Shown: one piece after another, positions 9,162-24,537 of the stretch
Position numbering within the stretch: position 1 is the stretch's first letter
Layout of the letters: the number at the start of each line of letters is the position of its first letter
Assembly: GCA_964007875.1 (NCBI GenBank)
Contig: CAXGAH010000011.1
Location: 25,495 to 57,494 of the forward strand
DNA from: an uncultured Balneolaceae bacterium
Lineage (GTDB): Bacteria > Bacteroidota > Rhodothermia > Balneolales > Balneolaceae
DNA: 32,000 bases
Direction of reading: 5' to 3'
Position numbers and translations under genes: made by a program
Notes under the pieces: generated by a model
Seen by the model: the letters and a program-made list of their open reading frames with translations, nothing else
What the model was told of the DNA's origin: nothing
Databases searched by the model: none

Positions 9162-9824
9162 ATGACCAAACAAATATTGGTCATGAACAACTTTCCCCTT
9201 GTAGAAATGCTCGCTTTTTTCCCCCGCTATTCAGAGGTGTACACTTTTGATTGGAGGCTGCGCTATGTGCGGCAGGTACGTCATATTAGATCCTGTCACA
9301 CTAAGACGCTAGGAGGGGTGCAATATTCATTTTTTAGTATTATGACTCAGCAGGGCGAAGCTATGGATGTACGCTTTAATCACGATGAATTACTTTGGGA
9401 CATTGTAGCGCTGCCTGGATCCGAGTTAGCTATACATAGCGAAGATGGTTCGCATTTTGTTATTGACCGAATATTGGTGCACCAACAGCGGCATAAGCAT
9501 CAGCCTTCTCTGGCTCATCGTATGCGCCCTATCCGTTTTGAGTGGCTTCCTTACGCCCGATGCGCGAGGAAGAGCCCTATTGAACATGCCAAAGTAGACC
9601 GCATGCATCCGTATCGTTTTTTGAAAGGAAAAAATAGCTCCTATCAGGTTCATAGGATAGAAACGCGTCATCTAGAAGATGTTATGGTCACCCGGCATTT
9701 TCATTATGTTGTTGAGGATACCGAGCGGAGGTTCTATCATGTAGTATACATATTGGATCAGGGAGATTGGCGGTTTATACAAGAAGTAGATGAACAGTTC
9801 TTATTTCACCGGTCTACTCCTTGA
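9162..9824 (+). CDS. hypothetical protein (His/Arg-rich, no family recognised)
   Basis: A 220-codon stop-free ORF in an AT-leaning genome is very unlikely by chance. It has no recognisable motif, signal peptide, TM segment or Shine-Dalgarno. It diverges from the Y-family polymerase across only 46 bp. Confidence 0.5.
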   Translation: MTKQILVMNNFPLVEMLAFFPRYSEVYTFDWRLRYVRQVRHIRSCHTKTLGGVQYSFFSIMTQQGEAMDVRFNHDELLWDIVALPGSELAIHSEDGSHFVIDRILVHQQRHKHQPSLAHRMRPIRFEWLPYARCARKSPIEHAKVDRMHPYRFLKGKNSSYQVHRIETRHLEDVMVTRHFHYVVEDTERRFYHVVYILDQGDWRFIQEVDEQFLFHRSTP

Positions 9825-9844
9825 AAGCGGGCCAAATAGTATGA

Positions 9845-10561
9845 TTAGAATAACCGTAATTTGGCTTCGATAAGATGAGGCCCGTTGTTACGTACGTTCC
9901 CAACAGCAGCAGGAACGATATGGCTTTTAAGTCCATCATCGGGGTAGGGGTCCAATAGGTAGTTCAAATCTTCTATACCCAATTGTGGATTTAACCAATG
10001 AGTCCATTCAGATGAATGCAAAAAAATAGGCATACGGTCATGAATGTCTTGCATGGTTGCATTGGGTCGAGTGGTCAAAATAGAAAACGAGTAAAGAGAG
10101 TCCAGTGGGCTTAAGGGAGAATAAAAGCCTGCTGCAAAAAGAATAGAGTTATTGACCGCTTGTATATAATGAGGAGTTTTATTCCCTTTTGTGCCTGACC
10201 ATTCAAAAAATCCGTTCATTGGGACAAGGCATCGCTGCGTAGATACGGATCGCCACATGAGTTTTTCGACTATCTGTTCGGATCGAGTGTTAATGGGTAG
10301 TAGGGGGCGGCTTCTTGCCTTCGGTTTCCACCCCATAAATCCCCAATACATGGGTGTCCGTATTAATTGGGGAGTATCGGTGGTGGCTTGAAAGATGACC
10401 GGTACGATATGGCTGGGCGCTATATTATAAGAAGGTAGTTTATGAGCGATTTTCTGTAGATTCTGTTCTCCAAAAATTCCATCTATTTCGTTTGGCAGCG
10501 AAGATCCGATCAGTGTATCTATGGTACTAAGGTCACTAAAAAGAGTGTATCGTCCACACAT
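9845..10561 (-). CDS. SOS-response-associated peptidase (SRAP/YedK family, abasic-site DNA-protein crosslinking)
   Basis: The N-terminus is MCGRY..., with the invariant Cys2 nucleophile, which requires the ATG at 10559-10561 rather than the TTG one codon upstream used by the track. Further family-like segments are NIAPS, VPMNGFFEW and HDRMPIFL. Confidence 0.85.
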   Translation of the reverse strand: MCGRYTLFSDLSTIDTLIGSSLPNEIDGIFGEQNLQKIAHKLPSYNIAPSHIVPVIFQATTDTPQLIRTPMYWGFMGWKPKARSRPLLPINTRSEQIVEKLMWRSVSTQRCLVPMNGFFEWSGTKGNKTPHYIQAVNNSILFAAGFYSPLSPLDSLYSFSILTTRPNATMQDIHDRMPIFLHSSEWTHWLNPQLGIEDLNYLLDPYPDDGLKSHIVPAAVGNVRNNGPHLIEAKLRLF

Positions 10562-10578
10562 CAAATAGAAAACGCCGT

Positions 10579-11241
10579 TTAATAAAAAATGCGAAGTACA
10601 ATCCGTCTATTTTTTGCACGGTTTTCTATAATATCTTGACCAAATTCGTCAATATGGGGTGCAGTAGGTAAGGGTTGTGTGTCTGCATATCCTGATGCTT
10701 TCAGATTGGAGGCTTGGTATCCTTGACTAACAAGAAATTTAACTACCTCAGAGGCTCTTGCAACAGAAAGTTCCCAGTTAGAAGGAAACCTTAACGTATT
10801 AATAGGAACATTATCAGTATGCCCTTCGATATCTACTTTAAAATTGTAAAATGATAATCCATTTAGAGCATCAGATACTTTACTAATAATACTCTCACCT
10901 GAGGGTAATAATTCGGCACCACCTGAGATATAAAGTGAACTACTATTAAATGTCATCACAATTTCTTTGGTAGTCAAATCAATATTAACTAAGCCTTGGT
11001 TACGTTCGGTAGTTAAAACAGAATCTAGATCAGCTTTAATTTCTGCCAACGGAGTTTTCTGTATTTCTGTACCCGTTACCTCTGAACGCATTCCTTCTTT
11101 CATTTGATCCCAAAGAGCTTGATCAGGGGTACTTGAAGCAATTAGAATAGCAAAAAAAGCAAGCAGTAATGTAATCATATCACTGTAGGTAAGAAGATAT
11201 TCAAGATCTTCTTCTGCTTCTTCCATTTCATTAGCGCTCAT
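10579..11241 (-). CDS. motB: MotB/PomB-like stator subunit (OmpA-like peptidoglycan-binding C-terminus)
   Basis: LLTYSDMITLLLAFFAIL is a single TM carrying the conserved channel Asp, as in the MotB TYADLMTLL motif. The C-terminal OmpA-like module reads IEGHTDNVPI...FPSNWELSVARASEVVKFL...ASGYADTQP...NRAKNRRIVL. Confidence 0.8.
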   Translation of the reverse strand: MSANEMEEAEEDLEYLLTYSDMITLLLAFFAILIASSTPDQALWDQMKEGMRSEVTGTEIQKTPLAEIKADLDSVLTTERNQGLVNIDLTTKEIVMTFNSSSLYISGGAELLPSGESIISKVSDALNGLSFYNFKVDIEGHTDNVPINTLRFPSNWELSVARASEVVKFLVSQGYQASNLKASGYADTQPLPTAPHIDEFGQDIIENRAKNRRIVLRIFY

Positions 11242-11277
11242 AACAAACTTATTTAAATTATTGTACTATCGAAATAG

Positions 11278-12099
11278 TTAGTCATCCTTATCTTTACTTT
11301 TGCTGCCTTTCTTTTTGAAGTCTCGCTGTAAAAAAGTACTAAGTTTATCCTGAATAAAGAATGCAGTTTTCTTTTCATTAATTAAAATGATTCCTTCGAG
11401 CATGAAAGTCTCTCTAAAACGATTTATAGAAGCTGAATTTTTAATTTTCTCAGCAACAGGATAAAAAATGAATCGAGAGAGTACAATTCCATATAATGTA
11501 GTCATTAAAGCAGCTGCCAGTCCAGGCCCCATGGCAGTAGGGTCGTCCAAATTACTAAGCATATCAATTAATCCAAATAATGTACCGAACATACCAAATG
11601 CAGGTGCCGCTCCACCCATCGCGCGAAGGACATCAACAACGACCATTTGCCTAAAAAAGCCTTCTTGGATATGGTTAGTTCCGAATTGACGAATGTCGTC
11701 ACTTGAATAATTGGTACTTAAAAGAGAAAAAAGATATCCTTCTAAATATCCACCTCGTTCTTCTTCTAATCTATCTAATGCATTAACTCTATCTTTTCTG
11801 ATTTCATCATTCCATTCAACGATTGCTTCAAAATCTTTTTGCAGCGATTTTTTGTTCGCACCTGCTTGACTAAAAAAGTATCTCACTCCCGCTAAAGCAC
11901 TATTTACATACCTTGATTGAAACGTAATATAAGAGGCCATAAGAACTCCACCTACTACAATAACCATACTAGGTATATTCATAAATTGGGTGTTAATACC
12001 TACAGTAAATGTTGTGGTTTTAATTGTCTCCAATACACCAAAAATTATCATTGCTAAACTAATGACTGTACCGATCATTGAGCCAATTGAAAATTTCAT
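11278..12099 (-). CDS. motA: MotA/PomA-like stator subunit (four-TM MotA/TolQ/ExbB proton-channel family)
   Basis: Two N-terminal TMs are followed by a cytoplasmic loop of about 95 aa, then TM3 (AAPAFGMFGTLFGLIDML, with the conserved Pro) and TM4 (LAAALMTTLYGIVLSRFIFYPV, with YG...P). The four-TM layout is MotA-type, not TolQ/ExbB-type (three TMs). GAGGA lies about 10 nt upstream of the ATG. Confidence 0.8.
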   Translation of the reverse strand: MKFSIGSMIGTVISLAMIIFGVLETIKTTTFTVGINTQFMNIPSMVIVVGGVLMASYITFQSRYVNSALAGVRYFFSQAGANKKSLQKDFEAIVEWNDEIRKDRVNALDRLEEERGGYLEGYLFSLLSTNYSSDDIRQFGTNHIQEGFFRQMVVVDVLRAMGGAAPAFGMFGTLFGLIDMLSNLDDPTAMGPGLAAALMTTLYGIVLSRFIFYPVAEKIKNSASINRFRETFMLEGIILINEKKTAFFIQDKLSTFLQRDFKKKGSKSKDKDD

Positions 12100-12102
12100 T
12101 TG

Positions 12103-12750
12103 TTACTGTCCTCTGCGTATTTCTTGTATTAAAGTTTCTAATTCTGGAATGCTAGGAATGGGAATATTTGGATCCATTTGGACTGCTCGATTCCAATTGG
12201 CACGTGCTGCTGTGATATTTTCTAACATAAAAAAGACCGTTCCTTTTAAGGCATAAGCGTCTGCAGTATCTTGAATTTCAAGGGTCTTGTCAATAAATTC
12301 TAAAGACTCTCGGTATTCTCCAAGATAAAATAAATCTTGAGCTTTCCGAAAGTTAGTAAGTAGAGATTGTATATCTCTGGCTCTGTTTTGTACTAGACTG
12401 GAGTCGATTACTATAATGGAATCTTTATCAACTGGTCGTATGCCCCGTAAATCCAAATAAAATTGTTCTTTAGATGGATCTAGTTTAATCTGGATATTTG
12501 AACTCTCATTTAAATAATTGACGGTAATTACTTCATTTAGAGGACTAGCATCGGTTGTGTTTACCGTATTGCGTTGAGTGTTGGTATTTACCGTACGCCG
12601 ACTAGTATCTTCCAATTGTGAAGAGGTATTACTTTGAACCGGCTCAGTGGTCGCGCAGCTCAATGTAAATGTAATTATGAAAGCTACCAAAAATGCTGTG
12701 AGCGTAGTTTTAGTTATAAGTACAATATGTTTAAAATCGTAAGACTGCAT
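12103..12750 (-). CDS. probable lipoprotein with C-terminal TPR-like repeats
   Basis: A hydrophobic leader ends ...ITFTLSCATTEP (lipobox-like LSC). A low-complexity T/N/S-rich linker follows. The C-terminal half has TPR-like helices (AQDLFYLGEYRESLEFIDKTLEIQDTADAYALKGTVFFMLENITAARANWNRAVQMDPN). Its start overlaps the upstream gene by 20 nt. Confidence 0.6.
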   Translation of the reverse strand: MQSYDFKHIVLITKTTLTAFLVAFIITFTLSCATTEPVQSNTSSQLEDTSRRTVNTNTQRNTVNTTDASPLNEVITVNYLNESSNIQIKLDPSKEQFYLDLRGIRPVDKDSIIVIDSSLVQNRARDIQSLLTNFRKAQDLFYLGEYRESLEFIDKTLEIQDTADAYALKGTVFFMLENITAARANWNRAVQMDPNIPIPSIPELETLIQEIRRGQ

Positions 12751-13894
12751 GGAATCCGATTCCAGTTTGTTTATAAGTTATACGGTCTTTGTTTGGTAAT
12801 TTGATAGATTCACCAGCGAGCATTAGATTCCCAAATACCGAAAGCCCAATATTTTTACTCAGATTAAATTGCACTCCAGGTTCTAACATAAACATTTCAC
12901 CATCCTTGTTACCAAGAGGAAATTGCATATTTAGTTTGGAGTAGAATACTACTCGATATTCATCTATATCAGGATTCTTTTCTGATAAGGCTTGGTAATA
13001 AACTAAACCCAAATCAAAAAGTGATATATCGAATAAAGTTATATCTCTATTTCGAGATCTAATAATATGATAACCTGCTGTAAAACCAATATAAGAACTA
13101 TTCTCTAAATCTAAAGGCTGTCTGTAAGAAAACGTTAAACTGAAATCTGTGAGAGCTTGTCGTAATAATGTATCGGCTTGATGTGAAAATGTAGTTGATG
13201 TGGAATCAGTGCCTGCGCCGGTACTATCATTACTTGATGTTGTAGTCGAATATTGATTCCTATACCAGCTATCGGAGGATCTAGTAGTGATTCCAAAACT
13301 GACTAATTTTTGTGAACCTTGATTCAATGTAGGTAAAACTATAGGTGGATTTGATATAAATGAGTTACTCCATACTACTTCACGTGATTGAGGGTTCATA
13401 ACACGAATTCCAATGACAAGTCCCTCTGGTTCTCTCCTTTGCAAACTTAATTCTACTAAACCTTGGACACCATATTTATAAGAAATTTCTTCTAACATAT
13501 CAGGTGATACATCTGCTAAGGATCTTCCTTGCATATTTAAAATCTGTAGTGTTGAATCGTTTCCTATAATCTTGAGTTTGTCATTTGGTTCTAGTTCTGG
13601 TGGTGATAATACAGTAAGTCCAGCATATTGACGCATTGAATATTCGATCTCAGCCCTTAGATATTCTACTTCTTCATTTGTAAACCTTAGAGCGGAATAA
13701 TTTATTTTATAAATCGCTATACGACGAACATTAACAGGAAAATCAGCTAAATTTGGATGTAACTGTTCTTGGATTTTTTCAATCATATATGGGTCACCTT
13801 GCTGATGAGTGAAAGTCTGAGCAGAGACATGAACTGTATTTAGTAACCCTCCAAAAGTTAGAACCAATAGTAGATTGAATGATCTTTTCATCAT
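12731..13894 (-). CDS. signal-peptide outer-membrane protein: N-terminal soluble domain plus C-terminal beta-barrel
   Basis: The leader MMKRSFNLLLVLTFGGLLNTVHVSAQ looks cleavable. The C-terminal half has alternating beta-strand patterns (FSLTFSYRQPL, YIGFTAGYHII, FDLGLVYYQAL, VVFYSKLNMQF, MFMLEPGVQFNL, IGLSVFGNLML) and ends GIGFHAVLRF with a terminal Phe, the OM insertion signature. The ATG directly abuts the stop of the upstream gene (TAGATGATG). Confidence 0.6.
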   Translation of the reverse strand: MMKRSFNLLLVLTFGGLLNTVHVSAQTFTHQQGDPYMIEKIQEQLHPNLADFPVNVRRIAIYKINYSALRFTNEEVEYLRAEIEYSMRQYAGLTVLSPPELEPNDKLKIIGNDSTLQILNMQGRSLADVSPDMLEEISYKYGVQGLVELSLQRREPEGLVIGIRVMNPQSREVVWSNSFISNPPIVLPTLNQGSQKLVSFGITTRSSDSWYRNQYSTTTSSNDSTGAGTDSTSTTFSHQADTLLRQALTDFSLTFSYRQPLDLENSSYIGFTAGYHIIRSRNRDITLFDISLFDLGLVYYQALSEKNPDIDEYRVVFYSKLNMQFPLGNKDGEMFMLEPGVQFNLSKNIGLSVFGNLMLAGESIKLPNKDRITYKQTGIGFHAVLRF

Positions 13895-15823
13895 CTATGC
13901 TTCTGTTTTCATTTTACGACGTACTGCGTAAAGAATGGTTTTTTGAGCGTCCTCTACTTCTGAATTAGTAGCTTCAGAAGGCATTTCTATTTCACTTAAA
14001 ATAAGCTGCTGATCTCGTTTAGTACGAGACTTAAGTACTTTTTCTCTGACAGCAGCTGGTGCAGTGCGTAAAGCTAAAATAAGTGTTTCAGAAGGTATTT
14101 CGTCAAGTGCTGATTTTATTAATTCAATTTTTACTTTTGGTAAATCATCAAATCCGATAAAATATTTTTTGATTTTTTTCGCCAATTCTAAATCTTGTTC
14201 TGCAATTGAAGCAACATATGCATCTTGTTCAGAAAGTGGCATAGTTTCAATTGTATTTAATATAGTTTCTACACCATCTGCTGCAACATATTTCATGTCA
14301 GAGATTGCTAAAGCTTTAGTAGAAAAATGAGAGGCAACTTTTTTATAGACGGAAATAGGTATATTATTGATTTTTCCCATTTTAAGGAGAACAGATATAC
14401 GTTTGTTTTCATCCATTTTTTGTAAAACAATACCAGCTCTCTCGCCAGCAACTTGTGCTAATAAAATAGAAATCATTTCATTTGACTCGTCTTTCATTAG
14501 ATGTAGAATTTGTTGATCTGTTAATTGATCAACAAATTCAAACATACTAGTTTCTTTATCTTCTGACTCTTTTGGGGTTTTGTATGTTGTAATACTGCTG
14601 CGCAGGTTCTCTGTCTCATTTATTCTTTCTTCGAGAGTAAGGCTACCAGAATTATCAATGCCATAATTAATTATTTCATAAATATTGGAACTCATATAAG
14701 GCTTTAAAATATTAATGAGTTTCTCATCTACACTAATAAGACTTTTTACCACTTTAGTTGTACCCTGTTCTTCATCATTCGCAATCCATTCACTAAACAT
14801 GCTTGAGATAATTTTTGGCTTACTAATGCACATATTTGCAATGAATGTTTTATCTCCTTCAAATTTCGCCATTTCTTTAACAGTAGGACCTTTGCGCGAC
14901 TGTTCTTCATTTATTTCTGTGGTAATCGATTGAGGTATGTTTAAAATAGTTTTAGATTGTTCTCTATTTTGTATAGCTTCGTCATCCTTTTTAGTTTTCG
15001 GCTTTCTTGAGACAGCAAATATTAAAGCCGCAATAAATAATATTGCTAATGCGAGAATAATGTATAATAGGTGCTCTGGGTTGTTCCAGTCAATTCCTAA
15101 AAATAGTTTCTGTTCTCTTTCTTCTACTAGGGTTTGGAAAACAGTATCAGGTAAAACAGGTGAAATATTATTAACTATATTTTCTTCTTGGTCTTCATTA
15201 GGTTGTTCTTGTGTATTATTGACGATATTAGTACTGTCTAGCAATGTTGCAGGACTAGGTGCGTAAGGCTTTTTAATGTCTTGTTCGAAAGCACGACTAT
15301 TTCGGGGAAATACTTTTTTACTGACCGTTACAATATCACCCCGAAATTCATCTGCATTGGCAATTAACGAGGCGGCTTCTTCTACAAAATCTACATCTTC
15401 GTCACTGTATGAAGTATCTACTAGTACCTTAATGTTAAGTCTAGTGAGTTGAAAACGTGCATCAAATCCAGACGCCTTGATACTGTCCTGCCCAGTAGGC
15501 CTGTTTGATTGTAGATTAGGTGGTATAAAAGGGAGCCCAGGGAGATTTTCAATTTTAATGTCTTCTTGTGGTTGAACGACTTGGTAGCCTTTAGGGACTA
15601 AAATGCGCTCTAATGTGGCCTTAACATCTACAATAAATGTTCCCTCCCGGTAGTAATCTGAGAGTGCGTTATCTAAAACAACTTCATAATATCGTTCGTA
15701 TTTAGCTGCTTCTTCCTGTACATCTGCAGACGAATTCTGTCCGGGCACTATTTGCCCGGTTACGATCATACTCTGAAGCGCAATAATGCTTGTAAGAGCA
15801 AGAATTTTTAGGTTTCCTGCCAT
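13895..15823 (-). CDS. membrane protein with FliF-like topology fused to a full-length FliG-like cytoplasmic module
   Basis: aa 1-25 are hydrophobic (a signal or TM1). aa 26-250 are periplasmic with alpha/beta segments (FIVDVKATLERILVP, RLNIKVLVDTSY, DIVTVSKKVF). The TM is at aa 251-271 (LLYIILALAILFIAALIFAV), followed by SRKPKTKKDD (positive-inside). aa 315-642, about the length of FliG, align by eye to E. coli FliG. The middle domain (ESNEMISILLAQVAGERAGIVLQKMDENKRISVLLKM) aligns with [37 protein letters not shown]. The C-domain (YFIGFDDLPKVKIELIKSALDEIPSETLILALRTAPAAVREKVLKSRTKRDQQ...SEVEDAQKTILYAVRR) aligns with MFVFENLVDVDDRSIQRLLQEVDSESLLIALKGAEPPLREKFLRNMSQRAAD...SQVENEQKAILLIVRR. GGAGG lies 7-8 nt upstream of the ATG. 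Confidence 0.7.
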   Translation of the reverse strand: MAGNLKILALTSIIALQSMIVTGQIVPGQNSSADVQEEAAKYERYYEVVLDNALSDYYREGTFIVDVKATLERILVPKGYQVVQPQEDIKIENLPGLPFIPPNLQSNRPTGQDSIKASGFDARFQLTRLNIKVLVDTSYSDEDVDFVEEAASLIANADEFRGDIVTVSKKVFPRNSRAFEQDIKKPYAPSPATLLDSTNIVNNTQEQPNEDQEENIVNNISPVLPDTVFQTLVEEREQKLFLGIDWNNPEHLLYIILALAILFIAALIFAVSRKPKTKKDDEAIQNREQSKTILNIPQSITTEINEEQSRKGPTVKEMAKFEGDKTFIANMCISKPKIISSMFSEWIANDEEQGTTKVVKSLISVDEKLINILKPYMSSNIYEIINYGIDNSGSLTLEERINETENLRSSITTYKTPKESEDKETSMFEFVDQLTDQQILHLMKDESNEMISILLAQVAGERAGIVLQKMDENKRISVLLKMGKINNIPISVYKKVASHFSTKALAISDMKYVAADGVETILNTIETMPLSEQDAYVASIAEQDLELAKKIKKYFIGFDDLPKVKIELIKSALDEIPSETLILALRTAPAAVREKVLKSRTKRDQQLILSEIEMPSEATNSEVEDAQKTILYAVRRKMKTEA

Positions 15824-15909
15824 AATTTAACCTCCGCAGAAGGTATTTTTATTTTAGCTTAAACGTAAATGATATTAACCACCTCGTAAAGTATGGGAAA
15901 TTTTTTGTG

Positions 15910-15918
15910 TTTTCCACA
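15910..15918 (+). promoter_or_regulatory. DnaA-box-like 9-mer TTTTCCACA (fits TTWTNCACA)
   Basis: This is a direct sequence match in the AT-rich region upstream of the motor operon. It has the same orientation as the box at 16030. Function is untested. Confidence 0.25.
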
Positions 15919-16029
15919 CTTTTACTTAAAATAAGTAGAATATTAATCTAATGATAATAATATTGATTTTTATTGGTAATTAGATGTTTAGGATAGAATA
16001 AGTTTCTTATAACATGATTTTGTATAAAC

Positions 16030-16038
16030 TTATCCACA
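16030..16038 (+). promoter_or_regulatory. perfect consensus DnaA box TTATCCACA
   Basis: It is an exact match to the E. coli-type DnaA box consensus, 120 bp from the related 9-mer at 15910. One perfect box in 32 kb is not very improbable by chance, so function is uncertain. Confidence 0.3.
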
Positions 16039-16084
16039 CTGCGAACTACGTAAAAACACTTAGTTTGTACGTATGCTGAATTGC

Positions 16085-16519
16085 TCATAACTTGGAAGAG
16101 AAGGCTAGCGCATAGATTTTCATTTGCTTAACCATAGAAGCCAAGCCATTAGCTCTGGTAGGCGAGAGATGCTCATTCATTCCAATCTCAGTGATGAAGG
16201 TAGGCTCTGTTTCCAAAATAGCGGTAGGGGTTTGATAGCTATACAAGCGTACCATTAATGCTACAAGTCCTTTAGTGATAGCAGCGTCACTGTCTGCCTG
16301 GAATACAATCCGCTCATCACTGAGTTCAGCATGCAGCCAAACTTGGCTTTGACAGCCTTTAACAATATTGCTATCTATTTTTTTTGAACTATCGAGTGGA
16401 GGAAGTTTAGATCCGAGCTTAATGATGTGCTTGTAACGTTCGGTCCAATCCTCGAAAAGTCTAAATTCTCTGGCAATTCTATTTTGTATGTCTTCAATAC
16501 CTATTTTGGGCTGCGACAT
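16085..16519 (-). CDS. sufE: cysteine desulfuration protein SufE
   Basis: The length is about 140 aa. The SufE/CsdE active-site context KGCQSQVWLH (persulfide-accepting Cys) is present, and the overall similarity to SufE is family-like. Confidence 0.85.
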   Translation of the reverse strand: MSQPKIGIEDIQNRIAREFRLFEDWTERYKHIIKLGSKLPPLDSSKKIDSNIVKGCQSQVWLHAELSDERIVFQADSDAAITKGLVALMVRLYSYQTPTAILETEPTFITEIGMNEHLSPTRANGLASMVKQMKIYALAFSSKL

Positions 16520-17406: not shown

Positions 17407-17543
17407 AGGGCCTACTTGGTCTCGCGGAGTTTTTCAAATTATTAGTAAGTAATTAAACGATGAATAGAGTTTAATCATTCCACAACTTCAAACAAATAAA
17501 ATAGAAGGCCTAATATGAGCTTTTCTTGATACAATTACAGGAT

Positions 17544-17571
17544 AAAAAAAGGGGGACTATTGTCCCCCTTT
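17544..17571 (-). terminator. rho-independent terminator (minus strand)
   Basis: GGGGGAC (17551-17557) and GTCCCCC (17562-17568) form a 7-bp GC stem with a 4-nt loop. On the minus strand the stem is followed by a run of seven U (plus-strand A7 at 17544-17550). It lies about 290 nt downstream of the meaB stop and upstream of the PAS gene. Confidence 0.75.
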
Positions 17572-17860
17572 CCTCACTCACTCATCGAAGTAGCAGCTTC
17601 GCTTTAGCTTAGCTGCACGCTCTTTAAAATTTATTTAAACCCACCGGTTCATGTGAACTCATACAGTTAAATTCATCGCCCAAACATCGTTATTTTATGT
17701 GCACATTACAAATGGTTATAGTGGCTTATCGCATATCTGACTATAAAATAAATATAATACTGTAAGCGCTTTTTTGCTAGTATAAAGTATGTTTTTGAGC
17801 AATTTTTTTTTATGTCATCAAAAGCTTTTCTAAATAGGCTAAAACCTTAAAATGAAGGGT

Positions 17861-18874
17861 TTATTCCTTATTGAATAGTGACCGCGAGAATTCTTGAGCT
17901 GCTTCTATCACATTTTTTTTACCGGATTGGATCTCTTTTATGAGCGCGTTTCGAAAAGAGCTAGTGTGCCTAGCTGCCTGTAAATAGTGAAGCCAATAGT
18001 ACTCACTTAATTTTTGAAACCAGTGTTCTTGTTGGAGTTTTCTTTTGTGCTCAAAGAATCCCTCTGCTACAGCTTGTTCTAGAAATTTAGTTACGGCTTG
18101 CCAACTTTCAGTGATTCCAATGTCTTGGGTGGAACTGACCCCTAAGGTCGGTACTTGGTAATTCTTAAGGGAATGATTGATTAGTTGGGAAGTAGATCGT
18201 AACGATTGTAGTGTTTGTTGAGCTAATGATTTTGTCATTCCGTCCATTTTATTCACCAACAAAACATCTGCAAATTCTAATACTCCTCGTTTAATCCCTT
18301 GTAATTCATCTCCACTTCCAGGTTGGTTAAGCAAGACAAAACAGTCCACCATATCTGCTACAGCACCTTCACTTTGCCCAATTCCGACAGTTTCAATTAG
18401 AATAATGGAATAACCAGCTAGTTCACATAAGCTCATGATGGATTGAGTAGCATGGGTAACTCCACCAAGAATTTGTTGAGAAGGTGAAGGGCGTATGAAG
18501 GTATTTGGCTGGGTGCTCAACCGCTTCATCCTGGTTTTATCACCTAGAATAGAACCTCCAGATAGTTGGCTACTAGGATCAATAGCTAGCACACATACTC
18601 GGTGTCCTAGCGAAAGTAGGTGCATCCCCAAGGATTCTATATAGCTACTTTTTCCTACCCCAGGAGGGCCTGAAATTCCTATTCTTATCGTTGGTGCACG
18701 TTCGGTAGCACTGAGTCGTGCCAAACTTTCTTTGAGTAGGTTTCCAGCCCTATGCGTATCTTCTGTCCGAGTACTTTCAAGCAGTGTAATTGCCCGAGAA
18801 AGACTTCTTATTTGTCCATTTTCGATGGAATTTATCCATTCCGAAATGGAAGTGTGATCGCTGGATTCTTTCAT
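17861..18874 (-). CDS. meaB: methylmalonyl-CoA mutase-associated GTPase MeaB (ArgK family)
   Basis: The P-loop GISGPPGVGKSS, the Walker B-like LIETVGIGQSE and the NKxD motif LVNKMDG are present. The gene lies 3 nt downstream of the mutase gene. Confidence 0.9.
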   Translation of the reverse strand: MKESSDHTSISEWINSIENGQIRSLSRAITLLESTRTEDTHRAGNLLKESLARLSATERAPTIRIGISGPPGVGKSSYIESLGMHLLSLGHRVCVLAIDPSSQLSGGSILGDKTRMKRLSTQPNTFIRPSPSQQILGGVTHATQSIMSLCELAGYSIILIETVGIGQSEGAVADMVDCFVLLNQPGSGDELQGIKRGVLEFADVLLVNKMDGMTKSLAQQTLQSLRSTSQLINHSLKNYQVPTLGVSSTQDIGITESWQAVTKFLEQAVAEGFFEHKRKLQQEHWFQKLSEYYWLHYLQAARHTSSFRNALIKEIQSGKKNVIEAAQEFSRSLFNKE

Positions 18875-21018: not shown

Positions 21019-24000
21019 TTATGCCACATCTTCCATTCGAACTCCTACCAATCGACTAACACCGGTTTCAGGCATGGTGACACCATACATCATCTCTGCC
21101 TTACTCATGGTTTTTTTATTGTGCGTAATAATGATGAACTGAGTGTCATTTGAAAACGCTTTAATCATTTTAGCAAATCGTTCGATATTTGCATCATCTA
21201 AAGGAGCATCAACCTCATCCAATACACAAAAAGGTGAGGGTTTTACCAAATAGATGGCAAATAGTAATGCGATGGCAGTGAGTGTTTTTTCCCCTCCTGA
21301 AAGTTGGGAGATACCTGAGGGTCGCTTACCCCTAGGTTGAGCTTTAATTTCAATACGAGCTTCTAGTGGATCTTCGGCATCTTGCTCTATAATCAAATCA
21401 CAAAAGTCGTCAGCAAAGAATAATGTTTTGAACACACGCTGGAAATTATTTCGAACTTCTTCAAAGGTTAAGTTAAAGCGTTCTGTGGCCTTGATATTGA
21501 TTTCATCTATGGTTTCAAGAAGTTGAATTTCGGCTTTCGTTAAATCTTCAATTTGTTCTTCATAGAAGTTTAATCTTTTGCTTTCCTCTTCATATTCTTC
21601 AATTGCAAGCGGGTTAACTTCTCCCAGACTGTTCACTTTTTGTTTGAGCCAAGTAATTCGCTGTTTCACTTCCTCTGTACTTTTATCCTCGGGCAAAGGG
21701 TCACTTTCAAGTAATTTAATGAGTAGCCCATAACTTTCCCAAACATGGTCGCGAAGGCTTCCGCTTTGTAAATCCATTTTTTCCTTGGCCATGTGCAAAT
21801 GATGAACTAGTTCGATGTTTACTTCTTTTTGGCGTCGAATTTCTTTGAGCTGCTTCTCTATTTCGTTAATGCTCCCTCGAACTATTGCAGCAGTTTCTTG
21901 TGTGTTAGATAGAGCCTGATCGGCCTCTTCTTTTTGGATAGTCGATTGCGCTAGTTTTTCTTTCCAGCTAGTTACTTGTTCGGTGTTTAAACTGATATGC
22001 TCACTTGCCTTACCAATGCGTTCCTCACGATGCTCTATGCGTTGTTCAACCCCATTTATACTAATCTGAGCACGTTGGATTTCACGTTCATGATTCTCAA
22101 TCTTATTGGTAATATCCTGATGTTTAAGTTGGGCATCGTTATACCGGCTTTGTGCACCTGAACGCTGTTCTTCTAATGACTCTAATAAGCTTTTTTGCTG
22201 TTCAAGTTTATGGTTATAGCTTTCAATTTTTTGTTCGCTTTCTTTTTGGGAAGGTGCTATGTTAGCAAGTTCTTGTTGTGCATTTCCCTCATTGGATTGA
22301 AGAGAGTTTTTTCGGTTAACCCGATCGGTAATATTCTTTTGGTAGACTTGCACCTTTGAACTCATTGAGTGTTTTTGCTGCTCTAATGTGCGAATTTGTT
22401 GTTCGAGATCTTTCAGCGCTTTATTGAGTACGGGTAAATCAATCTGTGTGCTTTTGTTCTGAATCTGTTCTAGATAGTCGGTTAGCTTGTGTAGCTCTTT
22501 CTGAATTTTTGCCTGTTGCTTTTTTAGTCGCTCAATTTTGGTTTTTAAGCTGACCCGCATACCAGTGTGGCTACTTTTACTTCCCGATGTGTAAAAAGAG
22601 TATCCACTACGAACATCCCCTTGTAAACTTACCGAGCTCCATTCTTTGTTTAACTCTGTTTTATTCATGAGCTCGATGTCCTCAAATACAAGAACATTAC
22701 CCAATAAGAGTTGCTTTAGGGCAGAGTACTTTGCTTTACAATCCACATGATGAAATAAGCTACCATTAGCAACATCATAGGTAGCGGCAAGCTGTTGTAG
22801 AGGAATAAAAGTAGCCAAGCCTTTTTTGTGTTCCTTTAATAATTTAGCAGCCGCATGTGCTTCTTCCATTGTATCCACGACTAAATAATTTAGCATAGGA
22901 CCAAGTGCTGACTCCAAAGCAACAGCATAAGTCTCATCAGTTGAAAAAACATCACTGACGGTCGTCATGCTTTTAAAATTAAATCGCTGCTCTTCTAATA
23001 GATATTGGACACTCGATGGAAAAGCTTCATTGGAAGCGGCTAAATCTTGAAGGAGCTGCGATTCTGACTCGGCTGATGCTAAATCACTGCTCAGGCTGCG
23101 AATCTGATCCTTCGTCTCGTTCTGGGTATGAGCGAATTGTTCTTTTTTTGCACGAGCCTCTTCTAACGACTTTTCCTGTTGGCTTCGATCGCTGAACATT
23201 TTTTCTAGCTGTTCATCTACATTACTTTGTTGCTCAGTAATAGTAGCAATTTCACTATTCAAATTAGAAATCTCAGACTCAATATGTTCAAGATCACCTT
23301 CGGTATTTTCGAGTTTGGACTCAATTTTAATTCGCTTGGCTTGAAGCTGAGTTAATTCATTTTTAGCTGCACTTATTTGAACTTCAAGCTCATATATTTC
23401 GTGGCGAATTTTGCTGTATTGCTGTTGGGTTTGGGTGTAAATGACTCTTGAATCTTCTAAGCTTTTCTCAGATCGTCCTTGTTCTGTAGCAAATTCCTCT
23501 AGTTTTTCCTGACTGTGTGTTCGAACTTGCTGTAACTCTGCTAAATCCTTATTACCCTGTTCGATATCCCTTTTATATTCACTTAGAACTTTTTCTTCGC
23601 TTTCAATTTTTTGCTGGGCAATACGGATTTGGGTGGTAGCTTCTTGAACAGCTTCTGCTAGGGATTGTACTCTGCGTTGAGCTTCGGACTGTGCTCGTTC
23701 TTTTTCCACGAGGGCTTTCCGAGTCTGCTCATCTTCAGCTTCAAGTGTATTCAGTTTTTGCTGGAGCTGTGTTTTTTCAAGCTCTGCGGAGTTTACGCGT
23801 TCAATTAATGGATTTAGTTCTTGTTGAATCCTCTCGTACTCATGCATGGAGAGCGCTTTATCAAGTTTTTCTAGTTCTTCTTTATATCCTTTTGCCTTGA
23901 TCGCTTTCTCTGCTTGGATTCCTAAGCTTCGTGTTTTCTTGCGTAATTCAATCAATAAATCATCGATGCGCTGAAGATCTTTACTTGTTTCCTCAAGCTT

Positions 24001-24537
24001 TCTGAGGCTTCTTTTTCGCTGATCCTTATACCTCGTGACACCGGCAGCCTCTTCAAAAAGTTTCCGCCGATCGTTGTTTTTATCATTTAAAATTTCCTCT
24101 ACCATCTTAAGCTCAATCACCGAATACGCATCCGAACCCATGCCGGTATCCATGAACAATTCCATGATGTCTTTTAATCGGCATGAAGTACCATTTATAA
24201 GGTATTCTGAATCTCCAGATCGGTATAAACGCCGAGTGATGGTGAGCTCTGAATATTCAATGGGTAAAATACCTTTATCATTTATAAAAGTTAGAGACAC
24301 CTCAGCTAGCCCAAGAGCTTTTTTCTTGGCTGTACCATTAAAAATCACATTACTCATTGCCGAAGATCGCAACAACGAAGGTCGCTGTTCTCCTAGTACC
24401 CACCGTAAGGCATCTACAATGTTAGATTTACCGCACCCATTTGGTCCGACAATGGAAGTAATTCCACTATCAAAGCTCACTTTTGTTTTATGAGCAAAAC
24501 TTTTAAATCCTTGTAATTCTAGTTCAGATATGTACAA
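21019..24537 (-). CDS. smc: chromosome segregation protein SMC
   Basis: The N-terminal Walker A reads FKSFAHKTKVSFDSGITSIVGPNGCGKSNIVDALRWVLGEQ. Long coiled-coil arms and a central hinge follow. The C-terminal signature LSGGEKTLTAIALLFA and Walker B FCVLDEVDAPLD are present. Length is 1172 aa. Confidence 0.95.
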   Translation of the reverse strand: MYISELELQGFKSFAHKTKVSFDSGITSIVGPNGCGKSNIVDALRWVLGEQRPSLLRSSAMSNVIFNGTAKKKALGLAEVSLTFINDKGILPIEYSELTITRRLYRSGDSEYLINGTSCRLKDIMELFMDTGMGSDAYSVIELKMVEEILNDKNNDRRKLFEEAAGVTRYKDQRKRSLRKLEETSKDLQRIDDLLIELRKKTRSLGIQAEKAIKAKGYKEELEKLDKALSMHEYERIQQELNPLIERVNSAELEKTQLQQKLNTLEAEDEQTRKALVEKERAQSEAQRRVQSLAEAVQEATTQIRIAQQKIESEEKVLSEYKRDIEQGNKDLAELQQVRTHSQEKLEEFATEQGRSEKSLEDSRVIYTQTQQQYSKIRHEIYELEVQISAAKNELTQLQAKRIKIESKLENTEGDLEHIESEISNLNSEIATITEQQSNVDEQLEKMFSDRSQQEKSLEEARAKKEQFAHTQNETKDQIRSLSSDLASAESESQLLQDLAASNEAFPSSVQYLLEEQRFNFKSMTTVSDVFSTDETYAVALESALGPMLNYLVVDTMEEAHAAAKLLKEHKKGLATFIPLQQLAATYDVANGSLFHHVDCKAKYSALKQLLLGNVLVFEDIELMNKTELNKEWSSVSLQGDVRSGYSFYTSGSKSSHTGMRVSLKTKIERLKKQQAKIQKELHKLTDYLEQIQNKSTQIDLPVLNKALKDLEQQIRTLEQQKHSMSSKVQVYQKNITDRVNRKNSLQSNEGNAQQELANIAPSQKESEQKIESYNHKLEQQKSLLESLEEQRSGAQSRYNDAQLKHQDITNKIENHEREIQRAQISINGVEQRIEHREERIGKASEHISLNTEQVTSWKEKLAQSTIQKEEADQALSNTQETAAIVRGSINEIEKQLKEIRRQKEVNIELVHHLHMAKEKMDLQSGSLRDHVWESYGLLIKLLESDPLPEDKSTEEVKQRITWLKQKVNSLGEVNPLAIEEYEEESKRLNFYEEQIEDLTKAEIQLLETIDEINIKATERFNLTFEEVRNNFQRVFKTLFFADDFCDLIIEQDAEDPLEARIEIKAQPRGKRPSGISQLSGGEKTLTAIALLFAIYLVKPSPFCVLDEVDAPLDDANIERFAKMIKAFSNDTQFIIITHNKKTMSKAEMMYGVTMPETGVSRLVGVRMEDVA

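Follow-up and report, generated by a model that had tools for sequence, protein, structure and literature searches.

A natural FliF-FliG fusion encoded with its own MotA/MotB stator and outer-membrane partners: a candidate non-flagellar rotor in Balneolaceae

A 32,000-nucleotide stretch of DNA from an uncultured Balneolaceae bacterium (contig CAXGAH010000011.1 of assembly GCA_964007875.1; hereafter the window) encodes a single polypeptide in which a periplasmic ring-building part of the flagellar protein FliF is followed by one transmembrane (TM) helix and a full-length FliG-like module. The gene for this fusion, which we call FG (13895-15823, 642 aa, ATG start), is the first of a five-gene cassette with the order FG, outer-membrane barrel protein, tetratricopeptide-repeat (TPR) lipoprotein, MotA and MotB; the gaps between successive genes are 0, -20, 3 and 36 nt, and all five genes, like every other gene and domain of the window located below, lie on its minus strand. 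A preliminary description had proposed a FliF-like topology and a full-length FliG-like module in one chain, and this proposal is supported by matches to Pfam and the Protein Data Bank (PDB) and by AlphaFold2 (AF2) models searched with Foldseek. The cassette context was absent from that description; it extends the observation by a dedicated stator pair, MotA/MotB, and by outer-membrane genes, and these neighbors make the strongest case for FG as a working rotor. On balance, we lean towards reading the cassette as a working non-flagellar machine of the flagellar rotor-stator type, with FG as the rotor.

The FliG part of FG can be assigned domain by domain. Pfam places the C-terminal (torque) domain at aa 539-639 (13907-14209; FliG_C, PF01706, 2e-19, 70.3 bits against a cutoff of 23.3) and the middle domain at aa 437-508 (14300-14515; FliG_M, PF14841, 2.2e-8, 34.6 bits against a cutoff of 25). 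An N-terminal-like domain at approximately aa 355-420 (14564-14761) is suggested by alignment with Aquifex FliG and by a profile of the FG family; the window protein by itself gives FliG_N (PF14842) 21 bits, with a cutoff of 25, and the match is placed on the middle region, while the family profile matches the Thermotoga maritima FliG_N chain 5tdy_B at 5e-4. Chains of FliG in the PDB match FG at 3e-17, and full-length Aquifex FliG can be aligned over its residues 19-319 with FG aa 332-637. The preliminary description had raised an MgtE-type domain as the competing assignment. This candidate is rejected: the MgtE N-domain (PF03448) scores E 0.43 and 11.6 bits, with a cutoff of 25.9, against the 2e-19 of FliG_C, and Pfam finds no CBS or MgtE transporter domains in FG. 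The match to TIGR00207 (fliG) is 2.6e-25 and 89.5 bits, which does not reach the equivalog cutoff of 226.7 bits; by this measure, the FliG part is a homologue and not an orthologue-grade FliG.

The family itself was collected by searching 1.84 billion representatives with FG aa 1-330. Close homologues number approximately 120 among the matches listed (56-100% identity), and the wider family forms 121 clusters at 50% identity, 77 of which are proteins of 550-754 aa. The family alignment and profile use 78 full-length members; FliG_C is found in all 78 of these, FliG_M in 73 and FliG_N in 61.

Individual residues of the torque domain were located by HMMER alignment to Salmonella FliG. The equivalent of E. 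coli R281, a stator-facing arginine, is FG R603 in 'TKRDQ' (14015-14017), and it is nearly invariant across the 78 members (R72/K5/H1, i.e. R/K in 77/78). The preliminary description had placed this residue in VREKV, where the arginine is in fact the equivalent of R271, and had read the R297 position as proline, where the alignment has T619. For the remaining torque charges, K264 corresponds to R586, D288 to S610 and D289 to E611. Across the family, the D289 equivalent is Glu in 31/78 members, and the positions of K264, D288 and R297 vary. Of the FliM-binding motif EHPQR, FG retains only E446 and R475, and S-N-E stands in the place of HPQ; in the family alignment both retained residues are invariant and HPQ is lost, and the alignments to Salmonella and Thermotoga FliG agree.

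Ahead of the FliG part, a 19-residue hydropathy scan detects only two hydrophobic stretches, at aa 2-27 and aa 247-276, the second peaking at aa 253-271. The second contains the single TM helix, aa 251-273 (15005-15073; hydropathy peak 3.1), which the profile alignment pairs with the TM2 region of FliF, and the basic cluster SRKPKTKK follows it directly. Hydropathy thus confirms the layout first described by eye, with an N-terminal hydrophobic segment, about 225 periplasmic residues, one strong TM segment (15011-15073) and a Lys/Arg cluster. The N-terminal segment (aa 1-23, 15755-15823, from hydropathy) ends in ..VTG/Q, and the family consensus likewise has a hydrophobic run followed by G/A-Q. 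Signal peptides of Bacteroidota have a habit of Q at +1, from which we infer that this segment is probably a cleaved signal peptide, and its removal would leave FG with one TM helix.

The periplasmic part of approximately 225 aa is modeled by AF2 as one ring-building motif (RBM) of the RBM3/collar kind plus a disordered acidic linker. The model covers aa 28-250, was built on 93 sequences, and has a predicted local distance difference test (pLDDT) score of ~98 over its core, which consists of a helix, a 20-residue strand, a loop, a 22-residue strand, a helix and a strand, with the linker after them. When the model is used to search the PDB with Foldseek, the best 18 matches, with E 5.7e-7 to 1.1e-5, probability 1.00 and template-modeling scores (normalized by the target) of up to 0.59, are all RBM3/S-ring regions of Salmonella and Vibrio FliF; OsmC/Ohr is the next fold, from E 1.5e-3 upward. 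The ring-building fold of FliF RBM3 is therefore what this comparison returns for a region whose fold the preliminary description had left to such a search. Sequence profiles agree on the same domain, which spans aa 38-175 (15299-15712). The Pfam family for the C-terminal half of FliF (YscJ_FliF_C, PF08345) is found in 26/78 family members, at best with 7e-8, and is sub-threshold in the window protein alone (E 0.21), and the family profile matches residues 404-560 of Salmonella FliF (6scn_A) at 1.2e-4. Neither the window protein nor any of the 78 members has a match to RBM1-RBM2 (PF01514, the SctJ-homology region), and FG appears to have lost this part of FliF, which houses the type III export gate.

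Two motifs stand out in the periplasmic domain. The most conserved is LPGLPFIP (aa 94-101, 15521-15544), located in the loop between the strands; P95 is invariant, and at least 90% of the 78 members keep G96, L97 and P98. From its position in the model, this LPGLPxxP loop may be a tip that binds a partner. The other, an RGD...FP motif with the sequence FRGDIVTVSKKVFP (aa 160-173, 15305-15346), marks the end of RBM3 and aligns with QGRGDLLNVLSVKFA of Vibrio FliF; here R161, G162, D163 and P173 show little or no variation.

The two halves are joined head to tail. The family profile is collinear with an engineered Vibrio FliF-FliG fusion in the PDB (8z4d) through the RGD motif, TM2, the FliF tail and the N, M and C domains of FliG, and it matches the FliG section of that structure (620-932) at 3.9e-29. 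Between the TM helix and FliG lies a segment resembling FliF's C-terminal tail, ..ISKPKIISSMFSEWIANDEEQG (aa 327-354, 14762-14845), which was identified by aligning the family motif I.NP......L..WI..D with 'ANEPELAAQVVKNWMND', where Vibrio FliF ends; the family hardly varies at W346 and G354. Along the profile, Salmonella FliF is matched up to its final residue, 560, at position 314, and the match to FliG starts at position 316. Because the profile follows the order of 8z4d and the FliF match ends where the FliG match begins, the arrangement is suggestive of adjacent fliF and fliG genes that became joined, with RBM1-RBM2 deleted.

The stator genes complete the flagellar-type core of the cassette. 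The MotA/PomA-like protein (273 aa, 11278-12099) matches PF01618 at 7e-19 and the NCBIfam models for MotP (1.9e-38) and PomA (2.7e-36), and PomA in the PDB matches it over aa 35-258 at 3e-28; TolQ/ExbB models reach only ~1e-3 (TolQ 8.6e-4). The MotB-like protein (220 aa, 10579-11241) has a plug (3.4e-11), a TM helix with Asp21 and an OmpA domain (2.3e-13), and matches NCBIfam models for MotD, MotS and MotB. Equivalog cutoffs are not reached (132 bits against 394), and the pair is thus a divergent member of the MotAB/PomAB group. The residues Pro166, Pro214, Thr173 and Thr201 of MotA are invariant in 54/54 loci, and Asp21 of MotB is present in 53/53. In the same 54 loci, Thr173, Thr200 and Thr201 are nearly invariant; these are the residues that we take to be equivalent to the Na+-site threonines T158, T185 and T186 of Vibrio PomA. 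Since this triad is kept, the stator may be sodium-driven in this marine lineage. For the positions of MotA that correspond to R88 and E96, the former is K/R in Balneolaceae and the latter is D/E in all 13 Fibrobacteria; together with the R281 equivalent of FliG, the charges of the putative torque interface are thus retained in part. A Zorya or other defence system was also considered for these genes and rejected: PADLOC gives only the generic similarity of ZorB to MotB, with no match to ZorA, ZorC, ZorD or ZorE.

The two remaining proteins are predicted to sit in the outer membrane. The gene that is always second in the cassette abuts the stop codon of FG (12731-13894) and encodes 387 aa comprising a signal peptide, an alpha/beta domain like those of TolB-N, LpoB and PelC, and an OmpA-like beta-barrel ending in Phe. 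Its AF2 model has a mean pLDDT of 74, and Foldseek matches it to TolB (4.5e-6), the OmpA TM domain (1.2e-4), LpoB (2.8e-4) and PelC (2.2e-3). Pfam has no family for this protein, and no match to Pfam FlgO is found either; a published survey lists a 'FlgO' hit as well for the non-flagellate Balneola sp. EhC07 and Balneolaceae bacterium ECT2AJA-110-D (PMC12199754, supplementary file 3). The third gene (12103-12750) encodes a 215-aa lipoprotein with a lipobox (..TLS/C, Cys32) and matches to TPR_1 and TPR_2; the lipobox cysteine is kept in 55/55 homologues.

How widely the cassette occurs was surveyed with one genome per species, which gave 60 loci and two more, 62 in all, of which 55 are not cut by a contig end. 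Gene content and gene order of the cassette are identical in every one of these 55 complete loci, in both Balneolaceae and Fibrobacteria; in the metagenome-assembled genomes (MAGs) of the Fibrobacteria, FG has 26-31% identity. The flanking genes differ from locus to locus. Apart from FliG, MotA and MotB, no flagellar family is found in any annotated neighborhood, with FliM and FliN among the missing, and membership in a flagellar gene cluster is accordingly rejected. The survey includes two cultured carriers, Gracilimonas tropica DSM 19535 and Balneola sp. EhC07. The former species is described as non-motile (PMC5167729, Table 1). For the latter, FliF, FlhA/B, FliPQR, the rod, hook and filament proteins and FliM/N are not among the listed hits (PMC12199754, supplementary file 3), and the same study says of rotor proteins that come without a filament that they 'could have an alternative function' (PMC12199754). 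Balneolaceae also include flagellated species such as Balneola vulgaris (PMC5167729). Literature searches found no description of the FG family or its cassette; only the chlamydial and engineered FliF-FliG fusions turned up.

Because the cassette has its own MotA/MotB and outer-membrane genes, is shared by two phyla and occurs in at least one carrier without flagellum genes, it points to a motor for something other than a flagellum. The best reading is a rotor ring that needs neither a type III secretion system (T3SS) nor a switch, is driven by dedicated stators and passes energy to outer-membrane partners. In such a machine, tens of FG subunits would assemble into a periplasmic ring, as RBM3 of FliF does, and their single TM helices would carry a 1:1 ring of FliG on the cytoplasmic face. 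Peptidoglycan-anchored MotA5B2 units, powered by ions (possibly Na+), would push on the FliG_C torque helix at the R281 equivalent. Since FliM and FliN are absent and the EHPQR motif is degraded, there would be no switch, and rotation would be unidirectional or unregulated. The torque would pass through the collar, with the LPGLPxxP tip contacting the TPR lipoprotein, the TolB-N-like domain of the barrel protein or both, and the ion-motive force of the inner membrane would thereby be delivered to a process at the outer membrane or cell surface.

Several points weigh against this proposal. Ring assembly, contact between MotA and FliG, torque and rotation are all steps that we infer from sequence, and no output device was identified. 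A flagellar C-ring also needs FliM and FliN, and an FG ring would have to be stable with FliG only. Only one of the five classical stator-facing charges of FliG is well conserved in the family. On the stator side, Fibrobacteria have Gln as the R88 equivalent of MotA, and at the E96 position Balneolaceae are mixed and often have Ser; judging from these residues, the interface between FG and MotA, if any, differs from that of E. coli. The tail of FliF is difficult to recognize in isolation: with the 78-sequence profile, the stretch alone gives an i-Evalue of 0.31, and a 13-sequence profile of the RBM3 end, TM helix and tail finds FliF in the PDB with E 0.23, among low-complexity and TM noise. 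Two loci, L064 and L066, do not have MotAB directly downstream of FG. Finally, the absence of flagella rests on literature for relatives, not on the window's own genome.

The divergent loci also show what else the ring can be associated with. In L063, L065, L067, L068, L069 and L070, FG is followed by MotA/MotB, directly or after one small gene. Another conserved context is shared by the divergent neighborhoods L063:259-13898, L064:1-12864, L068, L069:36-10242 and L070: a number of DUF4402-like proteins (~180-200 aa), proteins of ~277 aa that are paralogous, and one large protein of ~950-1200 aa with CarboxypepD_reg and a C-terminal TPR, to which OmpA is added in L064. These genes come first, then FG, sometimes a 155-aa TPR protein, and then MotA and MotB. 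A PDB sequence search with one of the DUF4402 proteins gave no match, and no literature on DUF4402 was found. Such partners may form a fiber or secretion apparatus mounted on the FG ring, and they hint at a surface structure or a transport apparatus. The TPR module of the window lipoprotein (aa 114-211) matches TPR modules encoded beside the divergent FG genes at ~1e-12 to 1e-14 (L063:5050-7986, L069:3439-6312, L064:4266-7922 and L065:8741-9907), where they form the C-terminal TPR of the large proteins. Given this relationship, the conserved core appears to be TPR, FG and MotAB, and a dedicated TPR partner seems to travel with the FG ring across cassette types. As separate observations, a response regulator and a histidine kinase follow MotB in L063, and in L066:3930-8826 (P0137) the genes for FG, the barrel and the TPR protein are followed by two small open reading frames (ORFs; 132 and 78 aa), with no MotA/MotB there; its stator is either elsewhere in the genome or lost.

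Related proteins that have the ring domain and no FliG bear on the first alternative. These mini-FliF proteins (~260-385 aa) consist of a signal peptide, an optional LysM domain (present in P0176, P0177, P0201, P0204 and P0230, absent from P0185 and P0193), RBM3/collar and a C-terminal TM segment, and they share the LPG[LM]PF[IV]P and RGD...FP motifs with FG. Each of the three loci read for P0177 (L071-L073) encodes a protein of ~967-989 aa, its mini-FliF and a TPR160 protein, the last of these truncated in L073 where the contig stops; DUF4402 is present in L073 only, and MotAB in none of the three. As these loci have no MotAB, the ring can presumably work unpowered, and it seems to be the base of an envelope apparatus that exists in powered and unpowered versions. 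The FG ring could then be a static scaffold, in which RBM3 forms a structural base and FliG and MotAB anchor or position it on the peptidoglycan, gate or sense, without sustained rotation. The recurrence of mini-FliF in the same DUF4402/~967-aa/TPR context without MotAB speaks for this, as does the loss of most classical charges of the torque interface. We nevertheless consider it unlikely: the ion machinery of MotAB (plug, Asp, Pro, Pro, Thr) is strictly conserved over two phyla, the R281 equivalent of FliG is nearly invariant, and a working ion motor next to a whole FliG would be hard to explain without energy transfer.

The outer-membrane proteins suggest a second alternative, envelope maintenance in the manner of Tol-Pal, where MotAB would pull on or mobilize outer-membrane partners through the FG ring instead of TolA, for tethering or constriction of the outer membrane and with no appendage. 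The parts of the cassette parallel TolQ-TolR-TolA-TolB-Pal-CpoB, the best Foldseek matches of the 387-aa protein are to TolB, and the TPR protein, like the CpoB of most non-proteobacteria, is a lipoprotein of the outer membrane. In Bacteroidetes, canonical tol-pal loci are reported not to be identifiable (PMC12204202), and the large partner in L064 (CarboxypepD_reg, TPR and OmpA) has the domain types of PorE. However, MotA resembles PomA/MotP over its whole length and TolQ/ExbB only distantly; the TolB-N-like fold occurs in LpoB, PelC and GNA1162 as well, and so is not specific; and the cassette has neither a beta-propeller nor a TolA. This alternative, which we regard as improbable, concerns the output and not the rotor-stator core, and in that respect it overlaps with the rotor-stator reading that we prefer.

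That the cassette serves a canonical flagellum as an accessory or alternative rotor-stator, or is what is left of a decaying one, is very unlikely: the domains are clearly of flagellar descent and the family Balneolaceae includes flagellated species (PMC5167729), but the cassette is found in the non-motile G. tropica, in Balneola sp. EhC07 without core flagellar genes and in Fibrobacteria MAGs, its partners and their order are kept across phyla at the low FG identities given above, its intact ORFs and invariant catalytic residues are unlike those of a remnant, and it never adjoins other flagellar genes.

The window has two longer intergenic gaps, 15824-16084 (261 nt, upstream of FG) and 17407-17860 (454 nt, between a PAS-domain gene and MeaB), and Rfam and tRNA scans of the window, including both of these gaps, gave no matches. 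A scan of 9700-16200 for terminators and for promoters of the sigma-70 consensus gave counts at the shuffle expectation and is uninformative for this reason. The genes for SMC (21019-24537) and MeaB (17861-18874) are intact in the window. In the record of a close relative (GCA_038144155.1, locus L002), whose FG is 94% identical, SMC is called as three ORFs of 78, 521 and 599 aa (L002:1286-4806), and MeaB has 255 aa (L002:6951-7718) against 337 aa here; because both genes are intact in the window, frameshifts or assembly errors are likely in that record.

The origin of a rotary motor from a secretion system and an ion-driven stator is a long-standing question, and the cassette is highly interesting both for the evolution of flagella and for minimal rotary motors. 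It is a conserved and tractable 'half motor': the S-part of the MS-ring, FliG and the stator are there, and the export gate, rod, hook, filament and switch are missing. If FG rotates, then FliF(RBM3)-FliG-MotAB would be a sufficient rotor-stator unit, a minimal system with fixed 1:1 stoichiometry would be available for structural and single-molecule work, and there would be a new route for energy from the inner to the outer membrane beside Tol, Ton, Gld and Agl. As to its history, we entertain, without favoring it, the broader idea of a self-contained, T3SS-independent rotary machine in non-flagellate bacteria of the Fibrobacteres-Chlorobi-Bacteroidetes (FCB) group. In it, a covalent mini-FliF/FliG ring would be spun by its own MotAB and coupled to outer-membrane partners, among them, in relatives, the DUF4402-type secreted proteins and the large envelope protein; it would be either a surviving relative of the rotor-stator module that went into the flagellar motor, or a flagellar motor that was stripped down and redeployed for a new kind of surface or envelope process.

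Among known systems, flagellar FliF and FliG with MotAB/PomAB share many parts with the cassette: RBM3/collar, TM2, the M and C domains of FliG, the R281-equivalent arginine and probably the FliG-binding tail and the N domain of FliG, together with a PomA-like MotA and a MotB with plug, Asp and OmpA domain. FG differs in being one polypeptide, in lacking RBM1/RBM2 and in probably having one TM helix instead of two; with RBM1/RBM2 gone, it would offer no housing for an export gate. The cassette also has no FliM/FliN and no T3SS, rod, hook or filament genes, its EHPQR motif is without HPQ, it brings genes for a barrel protein of the outer membrane and for a TPR lipoprotein, and non-flagellate genomes carry it. 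By its equivalog scores, its EHPQR motif and missing FliM, the loss of RBM1-RBM2 and its genomic context, FG falls outside the orthologues of flagellar FliG and FliF, while homology and a likely shared mechanism stand.

The nearest precedent is in Chlamydiaceae, so that a natural FliF-FliG fusion is not unprecedented: like FG, the chlamydial protein is a natural covalent fusion in organisms without flagella (PMC4768692). It has ~330 aa, with RBM2 and one other RBM, no SpoIIIAG-like RBM3 and only a region like the middle domain of FliG; the chlamydial flagellar genes named are FliF, FliL and FlhA, no Mot genes are mentioned, and a link to the injectisome is proposed (PMC4768692). FG, in contrast, keeps the opposite part of FliF (RBM3/collar) and all of FliG including the torque domain, and has a dedicated stator. 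The engineered Vibrio FliFG (8z4d/8z4g) has the same order of parts as FG and is collinear with the family profile. It forms MS-rings and has yielded S-ring structures (PMC10941966, PMC11481574), which makes a covalent 1:1 rotor feasible. Artificial fusion and deletion-fusion mutants of Salmonella FliF-FliG have been reported as well (PMC4768692). Unlike FG, such laboratory fusions are engineered, contain full-length FliF and work within a complete flagellum.

SpoIIIAG and SctJ/SctD resemble FG as single-pass proteins with an RBM and a beta-insertion that form a large periplasmic or intermembrane ring (PMC4768692), a ring that for FG would follow by analogy; the best structural matches of FG are, however, to FliF, and the rings of these non-flagellar proteins have no coupling to FliG or a stator. 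Tol-Pal, ExbBD-TonB, GldLM, AglRQS and Zorya share with the cassette a motor of the MotA/MotB family with periplasmic or outer-membrane partners, including TPR and OmpA-type modules (PMC12204202). In Tol, Ton, Gld and Zorya, the transducer (TolA, TonB, GldM or the ZorA tail) is part of the 5:2 complex or inserted in it. None of these other 5:2 ion motors uses a ring of FliG, whereas the cassette encodes a FliG ring component next to a MotA of the flagellar (PomA/MotP) type.

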